A stretch of DNA of 64,000 nt from Bacilli bacterium (GTDB lineage Bacteria; Bacillota_I; Bacilli_A; RF39; UBA660). Position 1 is the stretch's first letter. Each line of letters begins with the position of its first letter. Of this stretch, positions 3,474-55,373 are shown in pieces. Made by a program: the position numbers and the translations under genes. Location: positions 15,850 to 79,849 of the forward strand of contig JAFRCD010000001.1 of the NCBI GenBank assembly GCA_017404555.1. The letters run 5' to 3'. The notes under the pieces were generated by a model that did no database searches, was not told the DNA's origin, and saw nothing but the letters and a program-made list of their open reading frames with translations.

Positions 3474-3482
3474 TGATATAAT
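3474..3482 (+). promoter_or_regulatory. extended -10 element (TGnTATAAT) upstream of the methyltransferase gene
   Basis: tgatataat lies about 40 nt upstream of AGGAGG (3512-3517) and ATG 3523. Confidence 0.4.
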
Positions 3483-3522
3483 GTTTATAGGAGATATAGT
3501 AAGTACAAATCAGGAGGAAAAT

Positions 3523-9267: not shown

Positions 9268-9337
9268 AAGAAGGCGCTAGTACAGGCTTAATATATAAGT
9301 TTTTGTATGGCGTTTTTTTAGTAGGAGGTAATTAATA

Positions 9338-9676
9338 ATGTCTAAAACTATCATTCACAATATGCCTTTACCTTCAAATACAAAATATAAATGGTCTGAA
9401 TGTTTTGCTAAATTAATGTTGGAAAAAGTGATAACTAGTGAGTTAAATAATTTAGCTATAGCTGATAAACCAGATCTTCAAAATGCAAGCATGAGTGTTG
9501 GTATTGAGGTTACTACTGCTGTTGATAAAAAAGATATGGAGTTAGAGAGACTATACACTGAAATTGAATATGGATTGATTAGAAATATTGAAGGTGCAGC
9601 AAAAAAAATTAATAGATTGGGTGGAAAAATTATTGATGGAATATTAATTCATCCAGGACGACAAGAACACTTATGA
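9338..9676 (+). CDS. hypothetical protein (first gene of the three-gene module)
   Basis: 112 aa, AGGAGG RBS 9 nt upstream. No recognisable domain. Confidence 0.55.
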   Translation: MSKTIIHNMPLPSNTKYKWSECFAKLMLEKVITSELNNLAIADKPDLQNASMSVGIEVTTAVDKKDMELERLYTEIEYGLIRNIEGAAKKINRLGGKIIDGILIHPGRQEHL

Positions 9677-9999
9677 ATATATATAATTCTTTTAAAGAAA
9701 AAGTAATTTTGTTAAATAGTGGAAATTATACTATTTTTAAACATAATTATATATTCATTACTGATGAAAATTTAGCACATGAGGAAGAAATCAAAATGGT
9801 AATGATGGAGTTAGAGTTTATACAGGAAAAACAAAAGAATAAATTTGAAAGGGCTTATATATATATTTATGGAGATAAACTTTATGAGTTAAATCTAAAA
9901 CAAGAAAAATACAAAATATTTAAATTATCTTCAGATGAGGTTTATAGAATAAGTATAGATGCTAGAACTATTGTAGAAGAAAAAGAAATGGAGATGTAA
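9673..9999 (+). CDS. hypothetical protein (second gene of the module)
   Basis: 108 aa. Its start overlaps the upstream stop (ATGA). Its own stop lies 2 nt before the next ATG. Confidence 0.55.
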   Translation: MNIYNSFKEKVILLNSGNYTIFKHNYIFITDENLAHEEEIKMVMMELEFIQEKQKNKFERAYIYIYGDKLYELNLKQEKYKIFKLSSDEVYRISIDARTIVEEKEMEM

Positions 10000-10001
10000 T
10001 T

Positions 10002-12191
10002 ATGAAATTAGCTGAAAACCAAAAAATATTCAAGCAGTTAAATATTGATGATGCTTTGTGGGATGATATAAAAAAAGATGACAATAAGGTATTAATTGTT
10101 TATGGATCAAATGGAAGAGGTAAATCTACAATAAAAGATTTATTTCAAAAAGAAAATTTAGAAGAAAAGTTTGGATGTGAATCAGAAAATCAATCTAATA
10201 CTTTATATAATGAATTTGGAAATAATAAGTTTTTAGTATTTGATGAAAAATTTGTTGATCAATTTGTGTATTTTAATAATGCGCTGCAACAAAATAGTAT
10301 GAAAATTATAATGAAAACTGATTACATAAATGAACTATATAATGAAAAATCACACGCTAATGATGTAGTAGATATGATATTAGATACAATCAATAAATAT
10401 TTATCGACTATTGAATCATTTAATTCTATTCTAAATATTAAGTCTAATACAGGAAAAATTACTGATGCTAAAAAAAGATTTGCAACTACATTTATAGAAG
10501 GAAATTTGCCATATAAATATGATGATTTATTTGAAATAAGTGACGATAATCATAGAAAATGGTGGTATGAAGGTCTTTTACTATATAAGGATAATAAGCT
10601 TGATTTTTGCCCTTGGTGTAAAACTACTATTGAATCTGTAAATGAATCTTTAAAAGAACAAATAAAATCTGTGGATAATACGAAGCGAATCAATACTAAA
10701 CTATTTAGTGATAAAGTTGATAAAGTTTCTAATCTGTCGACAATAATGAATAACACTTTAATTAATGAAGAAGTAAAAAATAAAATTAGTCAACTAATTT
10801 CAAAAATAAACGTTTCTGTAGATCAGAATGTTGAAGAAAAGATTTTAACTGACATGGAGTCATTATATTCTTTATTGATTAATGATAATGAAATATTTGC
10901 TGAAATAAAAGATAAAGTTAAAATTTTAGATAATATATTAGAGATACAAGACATAGATTTAGCTAATAATATATCTAAATTAAAATTTTTTAGTCCAACA
11001 GATGAAATTATCAAATTAAGTGATAATTTGGATTATTTTATTAAATATAATAAGGATATTATTAATGGTATTAAAGATAGTAATAAAAGATTGCATGAAA
11101 TAATTAAAAGTGACGAAATTGATATTAATAATATTATTAAAAGTTTAGGATTAAAATACTATATAGAAATTGAATCTGATACTATAGTTTCCTCTGGAAT
11201 AAATGATAATGAAAAATACATGTATTTAAAGAGTTTGAATGGAAAAGACGTAAGTCAAAATATCGGGAATGTGCTTAGTTTTGGTGAAAAAAGTACATTA
11301 GCGTTTGCAATATTTATAGAACAGATTCGAAATTGTACTGATGAAAACACTATTATAATTTTTGATGATCCAATATCTAGTTATGATATTTTTAGAAGAT
11401 ATACTTCGCTCGGAATTATACAGACAATTACTGCATTACAATATAAAAAAATAGTAATACTTACACACGAAAGTAATTTTTTAACGTCGATTGTTTCAAA
11501 TTATGAACATTATACAAATGTTAAATGTACTATTTTAACAGAAATTAATGAATCAGAAATAGAAATAAAAGAATTACATAGACAATATGATAGTGAGGTT
11601 AATGTCTATAAAGATATGCTGAATTTTTCCTTTGATTTTCATATTTCACAAAGAATAATAGCTTTAAGACAGTTGCACGATTTATATCAATATATAACTG
11701 GAGATAGCAAAAAAGAATTATATAAATATATATGCAAATTAGTACATTTTAGAAAAGATGAACAAACATATTGGAATCAAGTAATGAAAACACAAATTAA
11801 TGAATTATTTAATTATTTTGCTATTAGTTATGATTCTCAAATTGAAAATATAAAGGATGAACAATTAGTATTTTCAGACATGGAACAATTATTAAATGAG
11901 ATAACATCAAAGGATATATATGATATTACATTAGAGGATCTAGTAAGCTTAAGAATGATTTCAGAAGTTTCAGTTAGAAATGAATCGAATGATGCAAATA
12001 AATTCAAAGTTAGAACATTATGGTCTATTAAATCATCAAGTAAAAAAGACCAACTTCAAAATTTTAAAGTTCTACTTAATTCAATTACTCATATCGATAA
12101 TGATGAAATAACATGGCCTGTTTTATGTATAAATGATTTAAAGTCAATTCCTAAATATGTTATATCCCAAATTATTAGTATAATAAAATAA
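10002..12191 (+). CDS. ABC/Rad50-like ATPase with a CxxC hook-like insert (RloC/PrrC- or Lamassu LmuB-like defence ATPase candidate)
   Basis: Walker A (YGSNGRGKST) is followed by an insert of about 400 aa containing CPWC, then an ABC-signature-like LSFGEKS, Walker B (IIIFDDPISSYD) and a His-loop-like LTHESNF. A further 240-aa C-terminal region has unknown function. Confidence 0.6.
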   Translation: MKLAENQKIFKQLNIDDALWDDIKKDDNKVLIVYGSNGRGKSTIKDLFQKENLEEKFGCESENQSNTLYNEFGNNKFLVFDEKFVDQFVYFNNALQQNSMKIIMKTDYINELYNEKSHANDVVDMILDTINKYLSTIESFNSILNIKSNTGKITDAKKRFATTFIEGNLPYKYDDLFEISDDNHRKWWYEGLLLYKDNKLDFCPWCKTTIESVNESLKEQIKSVDNTKRINTKLFSDKVDKVSNLSTIMNNTLINEEVKNKISQLISKINVSVDQNVEEKILTDMESLYSLLINDNEIFAEIKDKVKILDNILEIQDIDLANNISKLKFFSPTDEIIKLSDNLDYFIKYNKDIINGIKDSNKRLHEIIKSDEIDINNIIKSLGLKYYIEIESDTIVSSGINDNEKYMYLKSLNGKDVSQNIGNVLSFGEKSTLAFAIFIEQIRNCTDENTIIIFDDPISSYDIFRRYTSLGIIQTITALQYKKIVILTHESNFLTSIVSNYEHYTNVKCTILTEINESEIEIKELHRQYDSEVNVYKDMLNFSFDFHISQRIIALRQLHDLYQYITGDSKKELYKYICKLVHFRKDEQTYWNQVMKTQINELFNYFAISYDSQIENIKDEQLVFSDMEQLLNEITSKDIYDITLEDLVSLRMISEVSVRNESNDANKFKVRTLWSIKSSSKKDQLQNFKVLLNSITHIDNDEITWPVLCINDLKSIPKYVISQIISIIK

Positions 12192-24833: not shown

Positions 24834-24884
24834 AAATAAAAAGAAAAAAGTTATATAATTGAATATATAATGAGGAGAATCAGT

Positions 24885-27800
24885 ATGAAAAAACGCCAAA
24901 ATATATTTTTATTTATAATAGCAGGATTATTATTTTGTGGAGGATTGACGGGCTTTATTATGACTTTAAGAGCATCGCTAGCTGAAGTGGGTACCAACAC
25001 TTTATATGGTGCTATTGCAGCTGATCCTTTAACAGCAGTTTATGAAGGAGAACATCAAGATAGTTTAGATGGTTCTGGAAATGAAGCAATCCATTATTTC
25101 ACAGGTAGTGATGAGATAGTAAATCACAATAATGTAAAGCTAGGGGATACTTGTTGGCAAGTATTAAGAACTACTGATACTGGTGGAGTTAAAATGATTT
25201 ATAATGGTCCTTATGATGAAACCAACAAATGTAACTCTTCAAGAGGAACTCATAAAGGTATAATTAATACAAAAGGAGAGACAACAGATTTATCTGGTGG
25301 AGCTTATTTATACGGTTATGGTTTTACTTATAATGAGTCAACGGGAGAATTTACTTTAATTAATCCAATCAGTGCAACTTGGAGTAGTTCAACATATAAA
25401 AGTTTAGAGGGCAAATATACTTGTATGAGTACTTCTGATACTTGTACAACCATTTATAATATTCATAGTTATAGTAGTGATACAAGCGCTAAAACAACTA
25501 GTTATACAATCGATGATACCCACTATTCTCAAATTGGAACAAGTCCCTTCAATATAAATTCCAATCTGGCTATGGGCGGATATATGACTAATAGTTCCTA
25601 TTCCACTACGGCAACTTCTTATACAGCGCAAGCAGAACAGGTTTTACAGCAAAGCAGCAGTTTGTTTACAAATAGTTATTACTATGGATCAAGCATAAAA
25701 ACTAATGGTAGTCTCTATAATATAGGAGGAACAATAAGTAGAAATCCGGGAGCAGGATTATATACAGTCTTGTCTTCTAGTCTTTATGGTTCAACAGCAT
25801 ATTATATAGTCGGTAAAAGCGGTTCAGTATTTTATTACTTAACTTTAACTGGCGGTAAATCGCTAGCTGCAACTGAGAAATACTACACGTATGGGGATAG
25901 TTATACAGGAAATACTATAGCTAATCCTTCAAGTTTAAAATCAACAAATTTCTTTTCTAGGCATAATAGTCTTAGAAATAAATTCTATTGTTCTGGCGCA
26001 ACAAGCACTGCTTCTTGTACTCTAAAATATGCTACAAACACAACACCAGCAACAATAAGTTATATTTCAGCCAGTGGTACAAAATATGGTAATAAAGTAA
26101 CCTATGCTAATGGAAAATATACTTTGGTAGGTGTAGTAACTGGTTTTCCAGATAAGAACCACCATTATACATGTAATAATGGAGCAACAACTTGTGCAAC
26201 GGCATACTATGTAAATTCTTTTAGTGGAAATGCTTTGCGCCGAATAACACTAACTGGCGGAAAAAACATCAATAACGTTATTGAAGAAATGTATGATTCT
26301 AATTCCGTAAACCACTATAATTCATCGATAAAAAGTCAGATAGAAGGTTGGTATAGAGCAAAACTAGCTAATTATACAAAGTATTTTGAGGACGCTATAT
26401 ATTGTAACGATCGAACTAGAGCCAATCAATCAGAAAGTGGATTTGGCCCAAGTGGAGGAAGTTTAACAAAATCATTATATTTTACTGATCGAAATGACAA
26501 TACAGCTTTGAAATGTACTAAGCAAACTGATCAATTTGCAGTTGGTAATATTAAGGCTAAGAATAAATATCCTGTGGGATTAGCAGCAGCTGCAGAAATG
26601 AATTTATTAGATAATGATGCGGCCAGGACGACAGGAGAAAGCTATTGGTTAGGATCACCTTATGCTGCTAGTATTTATGCTAGCAATGGTTATATCAATA
26701 ATGAGGGAAGTGTTATATCTTATAATACAGGTGAACCTCGCGGGACTCGTCCAGTAGTATCTTTGAAAGCTGGCACAAAATATATATCAGGAACTGGTTC
26801 GCAAACAGATCCATATGTAATTGATATAAGGCCAGTCATAACTACTAGCGTTAAACATGGTACTATAACCGAAACTGATCAAGTAGAAGAAGGTTCCAAC
26901 AAGACAATTAGTTATAGCCCTGATAGCGGTTATCAGTTAAAGAGTATTAAAGTAGATGGTGAAGAGGTAAGTATTACTACATATGCTAATAGTTATGCAT
27001 TTAATAATATAACTGAAGATCATGCTATAGAAGTAGAATACTGGAAACCAACAATAACTACAAGCGTTATTCACGGAACAATAACTGAAACATCAGATGT
27101 GGATTCTGGTGAAGATAAAACAATTAATTATAGCCCTGATAGTGGTTATGATTTGAAAAAGATTACAGTAGATGGTGTAGATGTAAGTATTAGTGCTCAT
27201 GCTAGTAGCTATACATTTACTAATGTAACCGAAGATCATTCAATTGAAGTTGAGTATTGGAAACCAACAATAACTACTTCTGTTATTCATGGAACAATAA
27301 CTGAAACATCAGATGTAGATTCTGGTGAAGATAAGACAATTAATTATAGTCCAGATACGGGGTACAGATTAGAAAGTATAAAAGTAGATGGCGTAGAAGC
27401 TAGTATAACAGCTTACCCTAATAGTTATACCTTTAACAATGTAACAGAGGATCATACCATAGAAGTAGTATATGTCAATAAAAAAGTAGGCTATATAGTA
27501 AACTATTTAGAAAATGAAACTGATAAAGTCTTACATACTCAAAAACGAGAGGAAAATGCTTACTACGGTGATGAAATAATCAGCATACAAGAGATGATTG
27601 ATATTGATAATTATCACTTCGTTGATTTCAACAAAGAACGAATAGTACTAGAGGAAAATATCAATGATAATATCATTAATCTATACTATGAAAAAAATAG
27701 TAAAGAAGAAGTAATTACTGAACATAGTATGGTTCTTACTAGTGAAAAAGCAAAAATAACAAGTGAAGAAGACAAAGTTGATTATCAAATTAAATATCGA

Positions 27801-28325
27801 GTAGGTTTAGAAAACTATGTTGGTAAGGTCAAAGCTAAAATCACAGCATATTTACCATATCAAATAGATCTTGATGAATCTGATTTGGATGGTGGTAAGT
27901 ATAATAAAGATTATCGAACTATTACTTGGGAAGGAACAGTTGATATTGATAGAGAAAATAATCAAATTAGTTTTGATAAGGATATCGAATTAGTATATAA
28001 AGGTTACGATCTAAGTAAAAATGAACTTATTAATGTAGTTGCTGGCGAAATTACTTTAAAAGATTTAGATGATTATACTGAAGAAGTCTATGATACTAAA
28101 ACTACGAGTGTTGATATTAAAAAAGACGTTAAGCCAGATGTTAAACCTGATGATAAAGGAACAAATAATAAAGATAAGTCTAGTTCAACTAATAAAATAG
28201 TATCTGATCGAGTAAATAGTCCAAATACTACAACTAGAAATATGTTCTTATATATAATTGTTATGATGATATCTATCGTATGCTTCGGATTAGGTGTTAA
28301 AAATTATAAACAAATAAAGAGTTAA
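24885..28325 (+). CDS. large surface protein with N-terminal TM/signal anchor, three tandem 72-aa beta-sandwich-like repeats and a C-terminal TM anchor
   Basis: About 1147 aa. The N-terminal segment is FLFIIAGLLFCGGLTGFIM. The C-terminal segment is MFLYIIVMMISIVCFGLGV followed by KNYKQIKS. Repeats of the form KPTITTSVIHGTITETSDVDSGEDKTINYSPDSGY... are present. Confidence 0.7.
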   Translation: MKKRQNIFLFIIAGLLFCGGLTGFIMTLRASLAEVGTNTLYGAIAADPLTAVYEGEHQDSLDGSGNEAIHYFTGSDEIVNHNNVKLGDTCWQVLRTTDTGGVKMIYNGPYDETNKCNSSRGTHKGIINTKGETTDLSGGAYLYGYGFTYNESTGEFTLINPISATWSSSTYKSLEGKYTCMSTSDTCTTIYNIHSYSSDTSAKTTSYTIDDTHYSQIGTSPFNINSNLAMGGYMTNSSYSTTATSYTAQAEQVLQQSSSLFTNSYYYGSSIKTNGSLYNIGGTISRNPGAGLYTVLSSSLYGSTAYYIVGKSGSVFYYLTLTGGKSLAATEKYYTYGDSYTGNTIANPSSLKSTNFFSRHNSLRNKFYCSGATSTASCTLKYATNTTPATISYISASGTKYGNKVTYANGKYTLVGVVTGFPDKNHHYTCNNGATTCATAYYVNSFSGNALRRITLTGGKNINNVIEEMYDSNSVNHYNSSIKSQIEGWYRAKLANYTKYFEDAIYCNDRTRANQSESGFGPSGGSLTKSLYFTDRNDNTALKCTKQTDQFAVGNIKAKNKYPVGLAAAAEMNLLDNDAARTTGESYWLGSPYAASIYASNGYINNEGSVISYNTGEPRGTRPVVSLKAGTKYISGTGSQTDPYVIDIRPVITTSVKHGTITETDQVEEGSNKTISYSPDSGYQLKSIKVDGEEVSITTYANSYAFNNITEDHAIEVEYWKPTITTSVIHGTITETSDVDSGEDKTINYSPDSGYDLKKITVDGVDVSISAHASSYTFTNVTEDHSIEVEYWKPTITTSVIHGTITETSDVDSGEDKTINYSPDTGYRLESIKVDGVEASITAYPNSYTFNNVTEDHTIEVVYVNKKVGYIVNYLENETDKVLHTQKREENAYYGDEIISIQEMIDIDNYHFVDFNKERIVLEENINDNIINLYYEKNSKEEVITEHSMVLTSEKAKITSEEDKVDYQIKYRVGLENYVGKVKAKITAYLPYQIDLDESDLDGGKYNKDYRTITWEGTVDIDRENNQISFDKDIELVYKGYDLSKNELINVVAGEITLKDLDDYTEEVYDTKTTSVDIKKDVKPDVKPDDKGTNNKDKSSSTNKIVSDRVNSPNTTTRNMFLYIIVMMISIVCFGLGVKNYKQIKS
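26826..27480 (+). repeat. three tandem repeats of about 216 bp inside the surface-protein gene
   Basis: Repeat units 2 and 3 are nearly identical at the DNA level (aaaccaacaataactac...gaagttgagtattgg). Unit 1 is more diverged. Confidence 0.8.
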
Positions 28326-31634: not shown

Positions 31635-31698
31635 TTAAAATAATAGTTACATATAAAGAATAATATGATATAATCATAATATAATAGGAGGTAACCAT

Positions 31699-33498
31699 AT
31701 GATACGGAAAAACAAAAAAGGATTTACAATGGTTGAACTTTTAGCAACCATAGCTATAATAGCTGTTTTAACAACGCTAGCTATAGTGGGGGTAAACGGA
31801 GTAAGAAATTCCCTTAAGAGTAGTTATTACAAGCGAGTAGAAAAGCTGGTAGTAGCAGCGGGAATGGATTACTATAATGACCATAAAGGAGAACGACCTA
31901 TTAGAATTGGTCAATCTAGTCAAGTGGCACTATCAAAGTTGGAAGGTCAAGCTTATATTGAAGATGTTAAAGACTATACTAAACAATCATGTGATGCTAC
32001 TGAAAGTTATGTTTCAATAACTAAGACAAGTGAAAAAAAATATGAATATGATACATATTTAATATGTCCAGACCGTCTTGAAGATGATGTGCCCGAAGAC
32101 AAAAAAATAGATCCCAATATAGGAGAGGCAACAGACTGTAGTGACATGTTATCATCTGATGCCACGGATTCTGAATGGTCACATACAAGTACAAACTTAA
32201 GAGCAACCTTAACACCTGATATTACAGAATATATACTTCAAAAGAAAACTAGTAAGGGATGGGAAACTATTGGAGAGACTCATAAAGCTGACTATACACT
32301 TGCTATAAGTGATAATGGAATTTCTACTTATCGAGCAAGAGGAACAGGGACTAATGGTAAGTATTGTACTAGTAATACTGTTAATATAAAAATAGATAAA
32401 GATAATCCAAGATGTGGAGATGTAACTGGAGAAAGTACCAGTTGGACAAAGAGCCCTAGAACAATATCAATTGCTTGTTCAGATGGTGAAAAAGAAAGTG
32501 GTTGTGTTGAACCTACATATCAACATACTTTCTCAGCAGATACTAAAGTTGGAACTATAACTATTGCTGATAAAGCTGGTAATACTACTAATTGTCCTGT
32601 TAATGCTTATGTTGATACAACACCTCCAACTTGTGGTACTGCAACAGGAACAAGTACTAGTTGGACAAAGAGTAGTAGAACAATAACTCAACCTTGTACA
32701 GATAATTTAAGTGTTTGTAATAGTGTTCCTGCCACTTATTCAACAACTACTAAAACAGCTTCAGTAACAGTAACTGATAGTGCTGGAAATTCAAAAACAT
32801 GTCCAGCTTATAATGTTTATGTTGATACAACAGCTCCAACTTGTGGAAGTGCATCAGGTGGTGGTACTTCTTCAGCGCATAAGTTTGGTAATGTAACAGT
32901 TTCAGTAGGATGCTCTGATAGCCATAGTGGTTGTGGAAGTAGTTCATACAGTAAAACTTTCTCACCAACTACTACGACTAGTACAATTGCGATAGCTGAT
33001 AAAGCTGGTAATAGTAGAAGCTGTTCTGTTAATGTTTATAGTTATCCATGTAGTGCTCCAACAGTAAGTGGTTCAGTAGCATCAACTAGAAAATGTCCTT
33101 ATAATGGTGAAACTTTATCAAATACTAAAATAGTAACCTTTACAGTTGGTGGTTGTAGAAATGGTATGACAAGCTCTAATAGTTATATATGCTATTATAA
33201 TAAATCGTCAACAACAGCTTCTGGATGGTCAAGTCAACAAAAACGTCATGATAAAATTGTTTCAATTGGTTGTGGTAAAGTAAAATGTGGTTATCATTCA
33301 AGTAACTGGCATGGTAGCTGCATTAGTTCTAGTAACCATGGTGCTTTCACAGGTAGTGGTACTAAATGGAGTCTAAACCGTTCAACAGAGTGTGCTTACA
33401 TTAAAGCAGTAAGTAGTGGTGGTACTAAAGAGATGACTTGTAACATGAGTACTGGAAAATGTGTAACTGGTGTATCTGCTATGATAAGTAACTGTTAA
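31699..33498 (+). CDS. large type IV pilin-like protein (prepilin N-terminus plus three Cys-rich Ig-like modules), paralog A
   Basis: Class III signal KKGFTMVELLATIAIIAVLTTLAIVG (cleavage G|FTxxE). Repeated modules of about 65 aa carry paired Cys and TDxAGN-type motifs. Confidence 0.7.
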   Translation: MIRKNKKGFTMVELLATIAIIAVLTTLAIVGVNGVRNSLKSSYYKRVEKLVVAAGMDYYNDHKGERPIRIGQSSQVALSKLEGQAYIEDVKDYTKQSCDATESYVSITKTSEKKYEYDTYLICPDRLEDDVPEDKKIDPNIGEATDCSDMLSSDATDSEWSHTSTNLRATLTPDITEYILQKKTSKGWETIGETHKADYTLAISDNGISTYRARGTGTNGKYCTSNTVNIKIDKDNPRCGDVTGESTSWTKSPRTISIACSDGEKESGCVEPTYQHTFSADTKVGTITIADKAGNTTNCPVNAYVDTTPPTCGTATGTSTSWTKSSRTITQPCTDNLSVCNSVPATYSTTTKTASVTVTDSAGNSKTCPAYNVYVDTTAPTCGSASGGGTSSAHKFGNVTVSVGCSDSHSGCGSSSYSKTFSPTTTTSTIAIADKAGNSRSCSVNVYSYPCSAPTVSGSVASTRKCPYNGETLSNTKIVTFTVGGCRNGMTSSNSYICYYNKSSTTASGWSSQQKRHDKIVSIGCGKVKCGYHSSNWHGSCISSSNHGAFTGSGTKWSLNRSTECAYIKAVSSGGTKEMTCNMSTGKCVTGVSAMISNC

Positions 33499-33510
33499 TG
33501 AATGAGTATA

Positions 33511-33538
33511 AAAAACTAGGAATATATCCTGGTTTTTT
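33511..33538 (+). terminator. rho-independent terminator
   Basis: aaaaaactagga-atatat-cctggtttttt. Confidence 0.65.
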
Positions 33539-33583
33539 CTTGCTTATAATACTGTATATGCTATAATTATAATAGGTGGTAGA

Positions 33584-35395
33584 ATGAAAAAGAAAAAAGG
33601 GTTTACAATGGTTGAACTTTTAGCAACCCTAGCTATAATAGCTGCTTTAACAACTCTAGCTATAGTAGGAGTAAATACAGTAAGAACAGCTCTTAAAAAC
33701 AGTTATTATAATAGAGTAAAAAAATTAGTAATAGCGGCGGGAATTGATTATTATAATGATCATAAGAGTGAACGACCTGTTAGAATCAATCAAACTAATA
33801 AAGTGGCACTTATAGACTTACAAAATGAAGATTATATTGAAAAGGTTAAGGATTATGCCAAGGAAGTGTGTGATCCTGATAATAGTGAGCTTATTACTGA
33901 TAAAAGTTATGTTGTAATAACTAAAAAAAGCACGAAAAAATATAGTTATCAAGTTTATTTAAATTGTCCTAATTATAGTGATGGTGATCCTCAAGAAGAA
34001 AATCCAAATCCAAATGTAGGAGAAGCAACTGACTGTAGTAATATGTTAAGATCAAATGCTACGGGTTCTGGTTGGTCACATACAAGTATAGACTTAACAG
34101 CAACCTTAACACCAGATATTACAGAATATATAATTCAAAAGCAAAATGGTGACAAATGGGAAACTATTGGTTCAACCCATACTGGCGATACTACACTTAC
34201 TATAAGTGATAATGGAGTTTCTACTTATCGAGCATTAGGAACAGGAACTAATGGTAAGTATTGTACTAGTAATACTGTTAATATACAAATAGATAAAGAT
34301 AATCCAAGATGTGGTGCAATAGAAGGAGCAAGCACTAATTGGACAAAGAGTCCTAGACTAATTAAAATTAAATGTTCAGATGGTGAAAATGAAAGTGGTT
34401 GTGTTCAAGATGAATATCAACACACATTCTCTGCAGATACCAAAGTTGGAACTATAACTATTGCTGATAATGCTGGAAATACCACTGATTGTCCTGTTAA
34501 TGCTTATATTGATACAACACCTCCAACTTGTGGAACTCCAACCGGAACAAGCACTAGTTGGACAAAGAGCCCTAGAACAATAACTCAGCCTTGTAGTGAT
34601 AATGTAAGTGGTTGTAATAGTGTTCCTGCCACTTATTCAACAACTACTAAAACAGCTTCAGTAACAGTAGTTGATGGTGCTGGAAATTCAAAAACATGTC
34701 CAGCTTATGATGTTTATGTTGATACAACACTTCCAACCTGTGGAACAGCAACTGGTGGTGGTACTTCTTCAGCGCATAAGTTTGGTAATGTAACTGTTTC
34801 TCAACCATGTTCTGATAGTCATAGTGGTTGTGTAAAAACTCCATATAGTAAAACCTTCTCACCAACTACTACGACTAGTACAATTGCGATAGCTGATAAA
34901 GCTGGTAATAGTAGAAACTGTACTGTTAACGTTTATAGTTATCCGTGTGGTGCTCCAACAGTAAGTGGCTCAGTAGCAACCACTAGAAAATGTCCTTATA
35001 ATGGTGAAACTTTATCAAATACTAAAACAGTAACCTTTACAGTTGGTGGTTGTAGAAATGGTATGACAAGCTCTAATAGTTACATATGTCACTATAACAC
35101 CAAATCAACAGTTGCTACTGGCTGGTCGAGCGATCAAAAACACCATAATAAAATTGTGGAAATCGGTTGTGGTAAAGTAAAATGTGGTTATCATTCAAGT
35201 AACTGGCATGGTAGTTGTAAAAGTTCTACCAATCATGGGGCTTTCACAGGTAGTGGTACTAAATGGAGTCTTAATCGTTCAACAGAGTGTACATACATTA
35301 AAGCGGTAAGTGATGGTGGTACTAAAGAAATGACTTGTAATATGGGTACAGGAAAATGTGTAACAGGCGTATCTAATATGATAAAGAACTGCTAA
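33584..35395 (+). CDS. large type IV pilin-like protein, paralog B
   Basis: Same prepilin N-terminus (KKGFTMVELLATLAIIAALTTLAIVG). It is collinear with paralog A, and long DNA stretches are near-identical. Confidence 0.7.
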   Translation: MKKKKGFTMVELLATLAIIAALTTLAIVGVNTVRTALKNSYYNRVKKLVIAAGIDYYNDHKSERPVRINQTNKVALIDLQNEDYIEKVKDYAKEVCDPDNSELITDKSYVVITKKSTKKYSYQVYLNCPNYSDGDPQEENPNPNVGEATDCSNMLRSNATGSGWSHTSIDLTATLTPDITEYIIQKQNGDKWETIGSTHTGDTTLTISDNGVSTYRALGTGTNGKYCTSNTVNIQIDKDNPRCGAIEGASTNWTKSPRLIKIKCSDGENESGCVQDEYQHTFSADTKVGTITIADNAGNTTDCPVNAYIDTTPPTCGTPTGTSTSWTKSPRTITQPCSDNVSGCNSVPATYSTTTKTASVTVVDGAGNSKTCPAYDVYVDTTLPTCGTATGGGTSSAHKFGNVTVSQPCSDSHSGCVKTPYSKTFSPTTTTSTIAIADKAGNSRNCTVNVYSYPCGAPTVSGSVATTRKCPYNGETLSNTKTVTFTVGGCRNGMTSSNSYICHYNTKSTVATGWSSDQKHHNKIVEIGCGKVKCGYHSSNWHGSCKSSTNHGAFTGSGTKWSLNRSTECTYIKAVSDGGTKEMTCNMGTGKCVTGVSNMIKNC

Positions 35396-35409
35396 TAAAA
35401 AAATAAAAT

Positions 35410-35432
35410 CTAGGATAATCCTAGGTTTTTTT
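35410..35432 (+). terminator. rho-independent terminator
   Basis: ctagga-taa-tcctag followed by g and a T7 run. Confidence 0.65.
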
Positions 35433-35506
35433 CTTTTGCCCTTGTTTTATTTTTAAAATGATATATAATAAAAAGCAATACGTATTTTTGGGAGGTGAAA
35501 TCATAT

Positions 35507-37813
35507 ATGAAGTCTAACAAATTAGGAGTCCTACTTGTCAATGATATGGTTTTATTCCCAGGTGCTGAAATTCGTTTTGAGATTGACAACCTTGAACAAA
35601 GACAGATTATTTCAGTAGCAGAAGCTACAGAAGAAAAAGAAATATTAGTTGTCAATCCAATTGAAAATAACTTAGACAGTTTAGATATTACAATGCTTCC
35701 AACAGTTGGGGTAGTCGCTTCCTTAAAATTAAAAATGGATATTCCTAATGGTAAAACTAAAATAGTTTTAAAAGGTCTTCGTAGGGTAAAAGTAGACAGC
35801 TATTATCTTAATAATAGTTATTATGAAGCTACTACTAAAAAACTTGTTAAAAGAATTGATAAAGAAGACGAAGCTATGTATAGAGATATTTTAATTAAAG
35901 GCTTCGATAAATATATTGAAAATGTCCCCTATGTATCTAATGCCATTATGGCTCAACTAAAATACGTAGAAAAACTTAAAGAAATGACTGATATGATTGC
36001 GAACTTTTTACCTATTAGTTATGATAAAAAGAAGAAATATATTTTAGAATCTAGTCCTATTCTTAGAACAACAATGCTTATTGAAGACATGAACGATGAT
36101 ATTAAGTATGTTGAGTTGGAACGTAAGATTGAACAAGAAGTTGAAAAAGAATTAAATGATACCCAAAAAGAATTCTTCTTAAGAGAAAAAATAAAAACTA
36201 TTCAAAAAGAATTAGGAGATGTTTCTTCTAAAGAAGATGAAGTAGAACGCTTAGAGAAAAAACTTAGGTCTTTGAAATGTTCTAAAAGAGTAAAAGATCG
36301 TATTAAAAGAGAGATTGATCGTTACAAGAATGTTAATTCTAATTCTCCGGAATTAGGAATGATTAGAGATTATTTAGATTGGATGCTTAATTTACCTTGG
36401 CAGAAATATACTAAAGATAATGAAGATTTAGATGCGGTTAAACATGTTTTAGATACTTCGCACTTTGGTCTTGAAGATGTTAAAACTAGAATAATTGAGT
36501 ATTTGGCAGTTAAACAAAATACTAATAATTTAAAAAGTCCCATTATTTGTTTGGTAGGTCCTCCTGGTGTTGGTAAAACATCTTTAGCATTTTCTATTGC
36601 TAAGAGCTTAAATCGTAAATATACCAAAATAAGTGTAGGTGGTATTAATGATGAAGCTGAAATAGTAGGACATAGAAGAACTTATGTTGGTGCTTGTCCA
36701 GGAAGAATAATTTCCGGTATTAGAAAAGCAGAATCTACTAATCCAGTCTTTATTATTGATGAAATTGATAAATTAAGAAAAGATTTAAAGGGAGATCCAG
36801 CTAGTTCTTTATTAGAGGTTTTAGATCCTGAACAAAATTCTAAGTTCTCTGATCATTATATAGAAGAAGAATTTGATCTTTCCCAAGTAATGTTTATCGC
36901 GACAGCTAATTATATGGAACAAATCCCCCTAGAATTAAGAGATCGTTTAGAAATAATTGAACTATCTAGTTATACTGAATATGAAAAAGTTGATATTGCG
37001 ATGAACTATTTAATTCCCAAGAACTTGGAATCACATGGTTTAACTGAGTTAGAAGTTCAATTTGATGAAAAAGCTATTCTTTCATTGATTCGTAACTATA
37101 CTAAAGAAGCAGGCGTAAGAGAATTAGAAAGAGTAATATCATCACTACTAAGAAAGATAGTTAAAAAACTTTTAACTGACAAGAAGACCGCTGCTTACCA
37201 AATAGATACTAAGAAAGTAGTAGAGTTCTTAGGTCATGGTAAATATGAATACTCTAAACCTACTAAAGTTGATGAAGTAGGAGTTGTTAATGGTTTGGCT
37301 TATACAGTTTTTGGTGGTGATGTCTTACCGATTGAAGTAACTTCTTATAAAGGTAAAGGGAAACTTCTTTTAACTGGTAGTTTAGGTGATGTTATGAAAG
37401 AGTCAGCTAAGATTGCCTTAAGTTATATTAAGACCAATGCCAAAACATTTGGAATAGATTTTAAAGTGTTTGAAGAAAACGATATTCATATTCATGTTCC
37501 AGAAGGAGCAGTTAATAAAGATGGTCCTTCAGCAGGTATTACGCTAACTACAGCTCTTATTTCTCTTTTCACTAATAAAAAAGTTTCTTCTGATATAGCG
37601 ATGACTGGAGAAATAACCTTAAGGGGGCAAATATTACCTATTGGTGGTTTGAAAGAAAAGATAATAGGAGCCAAAAGAAATGGTATTAAAGAGATTTTTA
37701 TTCCTAAAGATAATAAAAAAGATTTAGAAGAAATCGATAAAGAATTAACTAAATCAGTAAAATTTATTTTAGTTGATAAATATCTTGATATTTATAAAAA
37801 GATATTTAAATAA
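35507..37813 (+). CDS. lon: ATP-dependent Lon protease (LonA)
   Basis: Lon N-domain, AAA+ motifs GPPGVGKTS and FIIDEIDK, and a proteolytic domain with the DGPSAG catalytic Ser and PIGGLKEK Lys. Confidence 0.9.
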   Translation: MKSNKLGVLLVNDMVLFPGAEIRFEIDNLEQRQIISVAEATEEKEILVVNPIENNLDSLDITMLPTVGVVASLKLKMDIPNGKTKIVLKGLRRVKVDSYYLNNSYYEATTKKLVKRIDKEDEAMYRDILIKGFDKYIENVPYVSNAIMAQLKYVEKLKEMTDMIANFLPISYDKKKKYILESSPILRTTMLIEDMNDDIKYVELERKIEQEVEKELNDTQKEFFLREKIKTIQKELGDVSSKEDEVERLEKKLRSLKCSKRVKDRIKREIDRYKNVNSNSPELGMIRDYLDWMLNLPWQKYTKDNEDLDAVKHVLDTSHFGLEDVKTRIIEYLAVKQNTNNLKSPIICLVGPPGVGKTSLAFSIAKSLNRKYTKISVGGINDEAEIVGHRRTYVGACPGRIISGIRKAESTNPVFIIDEIDKLRKDLKGDPASSLLEVLDPEQNSKFSDHYIEEEFDLSQVMFIATANYMEQIPLELRDRLEIIELSSYTEYEKVDIAMNYLIPKNLESHGLTELEVQFDEKAILSLIRNYTKEAGVRELERVISSLLRKIVKKLLTDKKTAAYQIDTKKVVEFLGHGKYEYSKPTKVDEVGVVNGLAYTVFGGDVLPIEVTSYKGKGKLLLTGSLGDVMKESAKIALSYIKTNAKTFGIDFKVFEENDIHIHVPEGAVNKDGPSAGITLTTALISLFTNKKVSSDIAMTGEITLRGQILPIGGLKEKIIGAKRNGIKEIFIPKDNKKDLEEIDKELTKSVKFILVDKYLDIYKKIFK

Positions 37814-39411: not shown

Positions 39412-39655
39412 AATAATAGCATTTATTTTAGTAGTTATAAATATAAGAATTAATGCTTGGTAAAAAACAATAATAAAAATTATTGGTATTAAAGAAGAAA
39501 AGAAAGAACTATTTCTTCTTTTTTGTTTACAATATGAACAGCGACAAAAGAAAGAATGCTTATTGTTCATAAGGATCACCTAGTATATTTTATGTTATTA
39601 CTTTAGATAATTTACAATTACTGAAAAATACCTTATAATAAAATTGGTGATGAAA

Positions 39656-40015
39656 ATGAATAGAAAAGGATTTACATTAGTTGAAGTTATTGCGGTAGTC
39701 GCTATTATTGGTTTTTTAGCAATAATAACCATTCCAGCTATTAGTAGATTATCAGCTGGTAATAATTCCAAAACAGTTGAGACTTTCGAAAAAACATTAA
39801 AAAATAGTGCTAAAGCCTATATTAATGTGACTAACCAAACAATTACAAGTACTCCTCAGAATATAACCTGTACAACTTTACAAGGTGCTGGATATATCAA
39901 GCAGTGTACAGTTAGAGGATATAACTGTAATAATCCATATGTAGAAGTACGTGCAGATTCTGATCGTACAAAATCTTATATTTATACGGTTCATGGTAAT
40001 TGTACAAAAGCGTAA
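39656..40015 (+). CDS. small type IV pilin/pseudopilin (ComGC-like)
   Basis: MNRKGFTLVEVIAVVAIIGFLAIITIPAI is a class III prepilin signal plus hydrophobic helix. About 120 aa with two C-terminal Cys. Confidence 0.75.
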   Translation: MNRKGFTLVEVIAVVAIIGFLAIITIPAISRLSAGNNSKTVETFEKTLKNSAKAYINVTNQTITSTPQNITCTTLQGAGYIKQCTVRGYNCNNPYVEVRADSDRTKSYIYTVHGNCTKA

Positions 40016-40079
40016 TTAATTGACAAATAACACTTTTTCTGGTATAATATAGCCACTATTTTGATTGGGGGGATTTTAG

Positions 40080-41093
40080 ATGAAAAAGAGAATGAGTAAA
40101 ATACTAAATTTAGTACTAGTTGGAATAATTAGTATGTTGTTTGCTCTAGGGAATGCCAAAGCATTAGACAACACTGTTACTGTTGGTGTATCTTCTTCTT
40201 TAACACCTTATGTAGCTGACGTTCATGTTGCCAAGATGCCACTAGTTGGTGGTGGATATGCTTATTGTACTGAACTAGCTAAGATTACACCATCTAATAT
40301 AACAGAAAAGTTAGTACAAGAATCAGATGCTGGAATTACTTATATTCTAGTAAATGGTTATCCAAGGAGAAACATTACTGGTAATGGAGACTATGACTAT
40401 TACATTACTCAAACAGCTATTTGGTGGTATTTAGATGATATCAACGGAACTGATTACTTATCATTAGCTTTTAAAACTGATGGTAAAGATGAATTTGGTT
40501 TAAGACCTTATGTTAAAGAGTTAGTTGAAGCAGCTAAAGAAGCTAAGAGTTCAGGCTATGGATATGGTTCAGTAGTACTTAATCCTAAATCTTCTAGTTT
40601 AGAATTATCTAGTGATAAAAAGTACTATGAAACAGTAATTGAACCTGTATTTACTAATGTTTTAGGAACTTATACTGTTAGTGTTAACTCTGATAAAGCA
40701 ATTATTACTGATTTAAATAATAATGCTAAGAATACTTTCAATGTAACTGAAAGTTTCAAGATTAGAGTTGCTAATGGTAAATATGATCCAAGTAAGATTA
40801 AAGTAACAGTTTCAGCTAATAATACTTATGAAAAAGCCTTCTATTATGCAGCTGAGAATCCTGCTATCCAAGGAGTAGTAGTATTACAAGATATCGCTGA
40901 AGAAGTAACAGCTTCATTAGAATTAGCTATGAATCCAACTTGTGAAAACGGTGGATTAACTGATGGTTGTGAAGCAGCTGAAATAGTAGATGTTCCAAAT
41001 ACTAATACTAATACTATTCTTTACATCATTGGTGCAGTTATTCTAGTATCTTCTACTGGATACGTATTCTATAATGCAAAACTTAAGAAATAA
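40080..41093 (+). CDS. cell-surface protein with a TQxA (thioester-domain-like) motif and a C-terminal sortase-B-type sorting signal
   Basis: Signal peptide; Cys63 in YAYCTE; YITQTAIWWY (TQxA[IV]W motif) about 48 aa downstream. The C-terminus has VPNTN followed by a hydrophobic segment and a KLKK tail. Confidence 0.5.
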   Translation: MKKRMSKILNLVLVGIISMLFALGNAKALDNTVTVGVSSSLTPYVADVHVAKMPLVGGGYAYCTELAKITPSNITEKLVQESDAGITYILVNGYPRRNITGNGDYDYYITQTAIWWYLDDINGTDYLSLAFKTDGKDEFGLRPYVKELVEAAKEAKSSGYGYGSVVLNPKSSSLELSSDKKYYETVIEPVFTNVLGTYTVSVNSDKAIITDLNNNAKNTFNVTESFKIRVANGKYDPSKIKVTVSANNTYEKAFYYAAENPAIQGVVVLQDIAEEVTASLELAMNPTCENGGLTDGCEAAEIVDVPNTNTNTILYIIGAVILVSSTGYVFYNAKLKK

Positions 41094-41712
41094 TGAAACA
41101 AGAAGAATAACTAATAGTAAGATCGCTTTTATAGCCAGTATCCTTACTATAATAGGATTATTCTTCTTATCATATAATTACATAATGGCTAAAAAAGCCG
41201 TTGTCTATGAATACATTAATGGAATCTATGTAGAAGAAAAACAAGATAATGATGTAGAAGTAGTTACCGAGAATAAAAAAGAAGGGGAAAAGGAAGAAGT
41301 AGAAGAAAATGATAGTGATTATATTGGCTATCTTAAGATACCAAAAATCGGGTTTGAAAAAGGTTTAGTTGACAAGAATTCAGAAGAAAATGATGTAGAA
41401 AAGAACCTTTATATCGCACCAGTATCTGCTTATCCAAATGTTAAAGGTGGTAATTTAATTATTGCTGGTCATTCAGGGACTGGATGGAAAGCCTTTTTCA
41501 ATGATTTATACAAATTAAGATTAACTGATCAAGCTATTGTAACTTATAAGAACAAAGAATATGTTTATCAACTTATGGATTTTTATAAACAACCTAAGAA
41601 TGGAAAGGTAACAATTAAAAGAAACAAATCAAAGACAACACTTACTCTTATAACGTGTACTAATGGTGATAGTACAACTCAGACTGTTTATATATTTGAA
41701 TTAAAAGAATAG
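41074..41712 (+). CDS. sortase-like cysteine transpeptidase
   Basis: N-terminal TM, the His motif LIIAGHSG and the Cys motif TLTLITCT. The conserved Arg expected about 10-13 residues after the Cys is absent. Confidence 0.6.
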   Translation: MQNLRNNETRRITNSKIAFIASILTIIGLFFLSYNYIMAKKAVVYEYINGIYVEEKQDNDVEVVTENKKEGEKEEVEENDSDYIGYLKIPKIGFEKGLVDKNSEENDVEKNLYIAPVSAYPNVKGGNLIIAGHSGTGWKAFFNDLYKLRLTDQAIVTYKNKEYVYQLMDFYKQPKNGKVTIKRNKSKTTLTLITCTNGDSTTQTVYIFELKE

Positions 41713-41749
41713 AAGTTACATATCATGTAATCTATAGGGGGTGATGAAG

Positions 41750-42901
41750 ATGATAAAAAACTTATCTTTTAGTGACCTTTTAGCGAATGTTGGTGGTGTT
41801 ATATCATCTTCATCGTTAAACATTATTTTAATTATCATATTTGTTATATTAGGATACTTATTAATCAAGTCTGATAATAAATATAATAATTATAAAAGAT
41901 ATGGTCTAATAGGTGTAATAATGATTATCTTAGGAGTTTTAATCTATTATAATAATGGTTTATTTAAAACTCTTGATTATCTAGCTAATAATTTATTCAT
42001 GATATTTTACTTCCCTAATTTATTAGCTTATATAATTGGTTTAATTGTTTTAAATATTGTTGTCTTTAAGACAATTACTAATAGAAAAACAGATAAATTA
42101 TTAAAAGTTGTAAATACTATTGTCTATTTAATAATTATGTATATGTCCCTTTTATTAATAGGAATTATCTCTAAAAGTAAACTAAATGTTTTTGCTTTAG
42201 ATGATATCTATAAAAATAGTAAAGCTTTATCTTTAATTAGACTTAGTTCCATTATCTTTATTGTTTGGTTATTATTTATTATTCTTTACAAAATATATTT
42301 GAACTATTTAAATAAGAAAGATCTTAAGCTACCAGCTTATAAGAAAAGCGAAAATAAGATCAAACCTAATTATCAAGTTAAAGCTAGAAGTTTACCTGAT
42401 TATATTAAAGAGATAGATTATCCAAAGATAGTAGAAAGAGATTACAAAGAATACAACATTAAAGAAGAAGAGTTAACTAATGAATTTGAAAGACAATTAT
42501 CTTTAGATGACTACAAACTATTAGTAAAATTACTATTAGATCATAAGACTAAAGAAGAAATGAGAGAAAAGGTTTCTTTCAAGAACCTAGATGATATTGC
42601 GACTATTAAAGCAAGAATTGAACAATCACAAAATGAAGATTCGGGGGTGGAAAACATGTTAGAAGAAGTAGAAAGAATTGTAACTGGTCCAACATTAGAA
42701 CAAGTTATGCCAATATATAAACCAGAACAAGAAATGATTTCTAAACATGACGAAGAAGTTATCACTAAAACAGTAGAAGCTATTGAAGAAAACTTATATC
42801 AAGCTAGAAGAAATAGTAATGTAATCGAAGAAGTAGAAAAAGATGATGACTCTTTGAAACAAGCTAAAATTGCCGAACTATTGAGATTATATCAAGAATA
42901 A
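41750..42901 (+). CDS. hypothetical polytopic membrane protein with an acidic C-terminal domain
   Basis: At least five hydrophobic segments in the first 190 aa, followed by a charged coiled-coil-like tail. Confidence 0.5.
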   Translation: MIKNLSFSDLLANVGGVISSSSLNIILIIIFVILGYLLIKSDNKYNNYKRYGLIGVIMIILGVLIYYNNGLFKTLDYLANNLFMIFYFPNLLAYIIGLIVLNIVVFKTITNRKTDKLLKVVNTIVYLIIMYMSLLLIGIISKSKLNVFALDDIYKNSKALSLIRLSSIIFIVWLLFIILYKIYLNYLNKKDLKLPAYKKSENKIKPNYQVKARSLPDYIKEIDYPKIVERDYKEYNIKEEELTNEFERQLSLDDYKLLVKLLLDHKTKEEMREKVSFKNLDDIATIKARIEQSQNEDSGVENMLEEVERIVTGPTLEQVMPIYKPEQEMISKHDEEVITKTVEAIEENLYQARRNSNVIEEVEKDDDSLKQAKIAELLRLYQE

Positions 42902-53331: not shown

Positions 53332-53391
53332 TTCTTTCTTTTTTAATGCAAAATTATTAAAAATTTGGTAAAATTAATATAGGTGATAAAC

Positions 53392-55373
<1,982 letters not shown>

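Follow-up and report, generated by a model that had tools for sequence, protein, structure and literature searches.

The window analysed here, a stretch of 64,000 nucleotides of contig JAFRCD010000001.1 from the metagenome-assembled genome (MAG) of an uncultured Bacilli bacterium, probably from the rumen, carries a tandem pair of complete open reading frames (ORFs), genes 1 and 2, whose products of 599 and 603 amino acids (aa) are modular type IV pilins in the sense of Raynaud et al. 2021, with an N-terminal pilin module followed by extra, non-pilin modules. The two genes, which lie on the forward strand exactly where a first-pass annotation had placed a tandem pair of paralogues, are 78% identical in protein and 84% identical in DNA. 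In the reading that we prefer, to which we give a probability of about 0.65, both pilin heads would dock in a type IV filament, the distal domain would be displayed on it as an adhesin, and this cargo is subject to gene conversion between the copies. The products are already present in NCBI, where members of this known class have been annotated generically: MBQ3435446.1 is named ‘prepilin-type N-terminal cleavage/methylation domain-containing protein’, and MBQ3435447.1, the product of gene 2, ‘type II secretion system protein’. Window positions are used throughout, and the sequence inspected comprises the window together with 10 kb past each of its edges, 84 kb in total.

Both proteins start with a short basic leader ending in Gly at position -1, after which come about 21 hydrophobic residues, +5 being Glu (MIRKNKKG/FTMVELLAT in gene 1 and MKKKKG/FTMVELLAT in gene 2, the slash marking the end of the leader), which is the pattern of a class III signal (IPR012902). 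The prepilin peptidase signal proposed in the first-pass annotation is borne out by profile matches, as both proteins score above the cut-off for Pfam N_methyl PF07963 (29.8 bits for gene 1 and 26.8 for gene 2; cut-off 21.2) and for TIGR02532 (27.6 and 25.2 bits; cut-off 16.3). A homology search returned 293 relatives, most of them 560-1050 aa long and nearly all with the N_methyl motif, in which the number of modules varies and some of which carry thrombospondin-type or Listeria-Bacteroides repeats; across this family Gly-1, Phe+1 and Glu+5 are invariant or nearly so.

The homology to pilins extends past the signal. When a profile built from the first 135 residues of 23 family members was searched against solved structures, it matched Geobacter PilA-N (1.2e-12) and Streptococcus sanguinis PilE1 (4.5e-11), as well as PilA, MshA, PpdD and GspG, with the alignment to Neisseria PilE reaching profile position 93. 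This profile search reached further than a phmmer search of the whole protein against the PDB, in which nothing beyond the alpha-1 helix was matched. An AlphaFold model, generated with a family alignment of 82 sequences (mean predicted local distance difference test score, pLDDT, 78), begins with a helix of 51 residues (aa 11-61), after which comes a small beta head that ends at about aa 120, with pLDDT values of 92-97, and a Cys98-Cys123 pair at the end of this head is nearly invariant in the family. Furthermore, a stand-alone type IV pilin gene found 4 kb downstream encodes a protein that aligns over the full extent of the pilin module of the pair, at 26% identity across 119 aa (E = 6e-9). 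This small protein, which resembles ComGC and GspG at scores below both cut-offs, may be a partner or the major pilin for genes 1 and 2. Its alignment covers only the first 119 aa of the larger proteins, whose pilin module ends at about aa 135 and gives way to non-pilin domains.

The first of these form a stalk, modelled mostly at pLDDT above 90, that consists of a beta-sandwich at aa ~150-232 and three further beta-sandwich modules at aa 238-445. These three modules have lengths of 69-75 aa and share 42-57% identity in pairwise comparison; four Cys and a D-x-A-G-N motif occur in each. The first-pass annotation had predicted pilin-like products with three Cys-rich, immunoglobulin (Ig)-like modules of ~65 aa: the N_methyl matches, the pilin profile and the AlphaFold model agree with the pilin-like assignment, and the Ig-like fold and the three Cys-containing modules also stand, but in the model the Ig-like domains number four. 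Pfam yielded only partial matches on the stalk (Big_3_2, DUF7743 and Big_13). In a Foldseek search, aa 150-445 aligned to the tandem-Ig rods of the adhesins GhpA and SiiE and of an ice-binding RTX adhesin, all of which have BIg/HYR-like stalks; these adhesins differ from the window proteins in being exported by type I secretion systems or other routes and anchored differently, identity to them is 10-20%, and the pattern of four Cys per module is specific to the family of the window genes.

Each protein contains 27 Cys at corresponding positions, amounting to 4.5% of residues as against 0.87% in the other ORFs of the window. Eleven of these fall in the C-terminal domain of 150 residues, the last of which is itself a Cys. 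Among 1.84 billion representative proteins, a HMMER search with this domain found only two clusters at 50% identity, both from the organism's own clade. By analogy, the Cys-rich C-terminal domain is likely to be the ligand-binding end of the protein.

In every genomic context read, genes of the family, either single or arrayed in tandem as twos or threes, were found amid housekeeping genes: between RseP and Lon (window, L001, L003), between PolC and TruB (L007, L083), near FtsZ/FtsW (L082) and in L008. The neighbourhood encodes CotE, SpoVS, YsxE, LtaS and a sortase, and the host therefore looks like a spore-forming monoderm. Related contigs bear the sample codes XIEF21-1 and WILK20-1, which we take to be ruminant gut datasets, and two related matches in the genome collection are rabbit-named (‘Lapin’) MAGs. 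A scan of this collection with the generic pilin motif GFT[ML][VI]E recovered, among the matches listed, mostly unrelated pilins of Planctomycetes and Patescibacteria and none from the present species; among these loci, PilB-type ATPases adjoined pilins in non-Bacilli loci only. In the preferred reading, a prepilin peptidase would cleave after Gly8 in the product of gene 1 or Gly6 in that of gene 2, and the hydrophobic alpha-1 helix with its Glu5 would dock the protein into a type IV filament; since the protein is bulky, the filament tip would be its most likely position, and the distal Cys-rich domain would thereby be presented for adhesion in the ruminant gut.

Two side observations concern the surroundings of such genes. 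In the PolC-TruB arrays of other Bacilli MAGs (L007, 7014-13677; L083, 7396-15980), two or three large N_methyl proteins of 702-938 aa are encoded in a row, with a small unannotated ORF (149-305 aa) after every one of these genes, which suggests a conserved partner gene that is not present beside the window pair. In the window, the stand-alone pilin gene opens a surface-display-like cassette (39650-42901) that continues, in order, with genes for a thioester-domain (TED) protein, a sortase and a DUF6057-like membrane protein. The TED protein is 337 aa long and ends in a VPNTN sorting-like signal and a hydrophobic tail; the best NCBIfam match of the sortase is to class D, below the cut-off. L008 shows another pilin gene beside a sortase/TED pair: the gene for an N_methyl protein of 989 aa comes first, then an ORF of 474 aa, then the sortase gene.

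Several observations weigh against the preferred reading. The C-terminal region (aa 460-599) received pLDDT values below 50 in the AlphaFold model, and none of its homologues has a known function, so that the adhesin assignment rests on analogy. When the N-terminal module alone was submitted to Foldseek, no significant match was found in the PDB, the best being an Xcp pseudopilus model at E = 1.6. As the first-pass annotation had noted for pilB, pilC and pilD, assembly genes are missing from the vicinity: searches for T2SSE, T2SSF and Peptidase_A24 domains found no PilB, PilC, PilD or PilT gene across the 84 kb, and a six-frame Walker-A search for PilB/PilT-type ATPases returned PriA only. Likewise, no assembly gene was seen within 10 kb of four distant family members (L007, L008, L082 and L083) or in the parts read of L003, a contig of the sister species described below. 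Finally, the sequences used for comparison all come from short-read metagenome assemblies, where the joining of tandem paralogues can go wrong.

Some of these points bear on what we regard as the main rival explanation, in which the class III signal and alpha-1 do no more than bring about export of the protein and its anchoring, as a monomer or a short stub, in the membrane or wall, with no long filament being formed. This arrangement would be akin to that of the sugar-binding proteins of the archaeal bindosome, or of the prepilin-type proteins found in their hundreds in Planctomycetes and Verrucomicrobia. Such pilus-independent display would sit well with the scattering of family genes among housekeeping genes, with no assembly gene within 10 kb in the contexts read, and with the large size of the proteins (560-1050 aa); class III signals on non-pilus surface proteins also have precedent (PMC3047682). 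We nevertheless consider it unlikely, as the near-invariance of Gly-1, Phe+1 and Glu+5 and the conserved, confidently folded head are what would be expected of filament-docking subunits, and as a small classical pilin is encoded 4 kb away. A broader and more doubtful conjecture is that uncultured herbivore-gut Bacilli have expanded a set of giant Cys-rich modular pilins, encoded as orphan singles or arrays at the RseP-Lon, PolC-TruB and FtsZ regions, which would act either as interchangeable tips for one distant type IV machine or in pilus-independent, pilin-anchored display, as a bacterial counterpart of the bindosome. If this were true, in either mode, paralogues would keep distinct carrier heads while conversion keeps stalks and tips alike, and the Ig-like modules, with their four Cys, would call for disulfides outside the cytoplasm, or for metal sites, in a Firmicute that is probably a strict anaerobe.

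The second part of the preferred reading, gene conversion, is supported by comparative data. The two window copies do not diverge uniformly: amino acid identity is 45-55% at residues ~76-150 and 80-95% elsewhere, and synonymous divergence (dS) between them ranges by region from 0.12 to 0.95 (chi-square p = 0.011). The first-pass annotation had inferred conversion from near-identical DNA segments shared by the copies; its example proved to be 7 nt out of register, with 21% identity as given and 90.5% once shifted. The description ‘near-identical’ was an overstatement, the longest exact run common to genes 1 and 2 being 50 nt. Conversion itself is seen most directly in a near-identical strain represented by a 101-kb scaffold (L001), in which the rseP and lon flanks are 99.4% identical, and gene 1 100% identical, to those of the window. 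Gene 2 of this strain differs from that of the window at 27 sites, and at all 27 the base is that of gene 1. Moreover, 26 of the differences fall inside a 186-nt interval, where they account for all 26 of the sites that distinguish the paralogues. The converted tract is bounded on both sides by gene-2-specific sites, and both genes are intact on the scaffold. Three contigs are on record with this allele (P0002), and the two that we read derive from separate samples; the allele occurs in samples SAMN15829917 and SAMN15829905. In scaffold L002, a 100-N gap replaces ~200 nt of gene 1 (~32767-32965), spanning the tract, as expected if a long perfect repeat broke the assembly. The window-type tract is retained in P0126, an allele of gene 2 that is more distant; the transfer therefore ran from gene 1 to gene 2.

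Older exchanges are apparent from a sister species (L003/L004), in which rseP and lon are 88% and 91% identical to those of the window and flank, in the order RseP, 595 aa, 596 aa, Lon, an equivalent pair. We compared the four genes at informative sites, scoring whether each site groups orthologues, groups the paralogues of one genome (concerted) or pairs them crosswise. In the pilin head, 17 sites were orthologous, 6 concerted and 5 cross; in the first Ig-like domain this was reversed, with 48 concerted, 3 orthologous and 1 cross, and in the C-terminal domain 50 sites were concerted, 9 orthologous and 5 cross. Over alignment columns 161-200, the paralogues of the sister species share 97% nucleotide identity, as against 62-68% to their orthologues. 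The comparison indicates that the duplication is older than the split from the sister species, that the two pilin heads have stayed distinct and orthologous while stalk and tip, which diverge fast between species, were repeatedly homogenised by conversion, and that recent conversion tracts have produced mosaic alleles among strains. Distinct heads joined to similar stalks and tips fit two alternative carriers for the same cargo. A crude ratio of nonsynonymous to synonymous divergence (dN/dS) was 0.17-0.20 in alpha-1 and the C-terminal domain and 0.46-0.63 in head and stalk, and never exceeded 1.

Mosaic alleles of this kind could also arise if an assembler switched between tandem copies that are 84% identical, in which case the tract, and a hybrid gene seen elsewhere, would be chimeric. 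Signs of trouble with these copies do exist: the 4.7-kb scaffold L005, from sample SAMN15829945, has just one gene, a hybrid that switches from one paralogue to the other where the two are most alike, L002 has its gap of 100 Ns in gene 1, and the gene-2 allele P0127, from a 1.8-kb contig, lacks 51 internal aa. We consider an artefact improbable as an explanation of the pattern as a whole, as the L001 tract lies within a 101-kb scaffold with both genes intact and gene-2-specific sites on either flank, its allele recurs on the further contigs mentioned above, the window-type allele likewise recurs in other assemblies, and the position of the gap in L002 is one at which an assembly would be broken by a real, long identical repeat. 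An assembly effect cannot account for the concerted evolution relative to the sister species, for which the evidence is hundreds of fixed sites. The L005 gene was also considered as an unequal-crossover deletion; this is not relied on here, as assembly collapse of two copies explains it equally well. The deletion in P0127 is clean and in frame, takes away the last part of module 3 and the first part of the C-terminal domain, and may be real length variation or an assembly artefact.

The first-pass annotation had linked conversion to antigenic variation, a proposal that our analysis does not support. In Neisseria, as here, non-reciprocal transfer of tracts between pilin-gene copies changes the expressed allele; there, however, the pilS copies are silent, without promoter and 5' end, and diversify a single expressed locus, pilE, at high frequency, whereas both window copies are complete and, to judge from their own expression signals, apparently expressed, only one recent tract is documented, and conversion mainly homogenises. 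Thus, within the genome, conversion makes the copies more alike, not more different. A six-frame scan for prepilin motifs, which did not extend to motif-less truncated copies, found no silent donor cassettes but only genes 1 and 2 and the stand-alone pilin. Neither an invertible promoter nor a slipped-strand tract was found: there was no long, highly complementary pair of inverted repeats (arms of 15-28 nt matched at 71-87% and two pairs of 14 nt at 93%, all of them without a promoter between the arms), and runs of A at the gene starts do not exceed 6 nt. The crude dN/dS values, below 1 throughout, likewise do not support the proposal, and Rfam scans detected no regulatory RNA.

The weakest alternative, that the products are minor subunits of a Com or type II secretion system (T2SS)-like pseudopilus, would account for the NCBI name of MBQ3435447.1 and for weak, N-terminal-only matches to the ComGC, ComGD, ComGE, GspH and GspJ models, and we think it very improbable, as all of these matches are far below cut-off and most span only part of the pilin module (the best being ComGE at 20.5 bits, cut-off 49, with GspJ at 14.5, cut-off 64.85), as the 450-aa Ig-like and Cys-rich extension is without counterpart in Com or Gsp pseudopilins, and as the genes, flanked by those for RseP and Lon in a host that looks like a spore-forming monoderm, lie outside any comG-like operon. 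To our knowledge, classical T2SSs belong to diderms. With neither an equivalog match above cut-off nor a comG or gsp operon, the ‘type II secretion’ label on gene 2 is not supported; it is a name drawn from a generic motif, is misleading and should be corrected.

Modular pilins are an established and diverse class that comprises over 1,200 proteins in 264 architectures, some of them multi-domain (PMC8179133). Examples come from S. sanguinis, where PilB (pilin plus vWA) has been shown to be an adhesin and PilC joins a pilin to a lectin (Raynaud et al. 2021, PMC8179133). The window proteins share with them a class III signal, a small pilin module with non-pilin modules attached, a monoderm host and the predicted presentation of an effector on a filament. 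They differ in grafting a four-domain Ig-like stalk and an orphan 11-Cys domain onto the pilin, rather than vWA or a lectin, in lying outside a pil operon, and in forming a tandem pair that evolves in concert. The large tip minor pilins CofB and TcpB of type IVb systems (PMC8179133) likewise combine a pilin module with extra beta-rich domains and have been proposed, from their bulk, to sit at the tip; unlike the window proteins, these are encoded in the pilus operons of diderm pathogens and lack Cys-rich modules, and sequence similarity between the two groups does not extend past alpha-1. In the Kil (Tad) system of Myxococcus, paralogous sets of minor-pilin ‘Tips’ expose variable domains at the pilus end (Herrou et al. 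2025, PMC12075869), providing a precedent for alternative tips on one machine, and the window paralogues, with their different heads and similar stalks, could serve in the same way. Kil, to which we propose no homology, belongs to the Tad/Flp type and has tip complexes made of several proteins, and its host is a diderm predator.

On current views, simple type IV filaments owe the gain of new functions to modular pilins, but nearly all of the evidence comes from one streptococcus. The pair described here does not overturn current understanding; it offers a natural experiment in which carrier (head) and cargo (stalk and tip) evolve under different regimes within one gene pair, together with a clade-restricted, Cys-rich tip domain that is a target for testing ligand binding in the rumen.

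The pair is flanked by the RseP gene, which has its own terminator, on one side and the Lon gene on the other (Table 1). Each pilin gene is preceded by -10/-35-like hexamers and a ribosome-binding site and followed by an intrinsic terminator, and the two therefore look like separate transcription units, although the gene 2 promoter was not flagged by a consensus scan and its -35 hexamer matches at only 3 of 6 positions. As the first-pass annotation had reported, the terminators have related stems (CTAGGA/TCCT(A/G)G). Rfam scans found no riboswitch, of the cyclic di-GMP (c-di-GMP) type or any other, upstream of any of the three pilin genes. A c-di-GMP riboswitch is a known control of a pilin gene in Clostridioides difficile. 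The G+C content of the pair (34% over 32001-36000) exceeds that of the window (~28%) and of the flanking housekeeping genes (26-29%), probably because the proteins are rich in Gly, Thr, Ser and Cys; horizontal acquisition was rejected as the main explanation, as the pair is syntenic in the sister species.

Table 1. Features of the pilin pair and its vicinity (window positions; aa, residues of the gene product).
Feature	Residues	Position	Strand	Remarks
RseP terminator hairpin ATTAGGACttgtCCTAATTTTT		upstream of gene 1 promoter-like site		intergenic sequence
Gene 1 promoter-like site		31646..31674	+	GTTACA, 17 nt, TG-TATAAT; 10/12 consensus matches, TG extension; consensus match only
Gene 1, modular type IV pilin	599 aa	31699..33498	+	
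Gene 1 leader	aa 1-8	31699-31722	+	
Gene 1 pilin module	aa 9-~135	31723-32103	+	
Gene 1 first Ig-like domain	aa ~141-232	32119-32394	+	
Gene 1 Cys-containing module 1	aa 237-311	32407-32631	+	
Gene 1 Cys-containing module 2	aa 312-381	32632-32841	+	
Gene 1 Cys-containing module 3	aa 382-450	32842-33048	+	
Gene 1 Cys-rich C-terminal domain	aa 451-599	33049-33495	+	
Gene 1 intrinsic terminator AAAAAACTAGGAatataTCCTGGTTTTTT		33510..33538	+	
Gene 2 likely promoter		33540..33567	+	TTGCTT, 16 nt, TGc-TATAAT; read by eye, putative
Gene 2 ribosome-binding site		33574-33579	+	AGGTGG
Gene 2, paralogue	603 aa	33584..35395	+	
Gene 2 leader	aa 1-6		+	
Gene 2 pilin module	aa 7-~139	33602-34000	+	
Gene 2 first Ig-like domain	aa ~145-236	34016-34291	+	
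Gene 2 Cys-containing module 1	aa 241-315	34304-34528	+	
Gene 2 Cys-containing module 2	aa 316-385	34529-34738	+	
Gene 2 Cys-containing module 3	aa 386-454	34739-34945	+	
Gene 2 Cys-rich C-terminal domain	aa 455-603	34946-35392	+	
Gene 2 intrinsic terminator AAAATCTAGGAtaaTCCTAGGTTTT		35405..35429	+	
Converted tract in gene 2 of the L001/L002 strain		34670..34855	+	counterpart in gene 1 32773-32958; at least 186 nt, at most 305 nt (34612-34916)
Stand-alone type IV pilin	~120 aa	39650..40015	+	MKMNRKG/FTLVE; N_methyl 30.0 bits, cut-off 21.2

During this analysis, we also noted several features elsewhere in the window. Between ylbF and cotE, a gene at 24870-28325 encodes a protein of 1151 aa with no confident family assignment and only a faint match to Flg_new_2; it is present in the window and in L001 and absent from the same position in the sister species (L003/L004), and appears to be an insertion, specific to the lineage, that encodes a large protein, probably of the cell surface. 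A defence island at 3481-12191 contains genes for a 661-aa DNA methyltransferase of the D12 class, for a restriction enzyme of the AlwI family and for GmrSD, by which modified DNA is cut, as well as two small ORFs and a gene for an AAA_13 ATPase. In addition, the ORF for an NAD-dependent DNA ligase at 53898-55373 begins at position 110 of the adenylation-domain profile, whereas the corresponding product on contig L080 is 660 aa long; the window ORF is thus 5'-truncated, through either the ORF-calling rule or a frameshift near 53383-53900.

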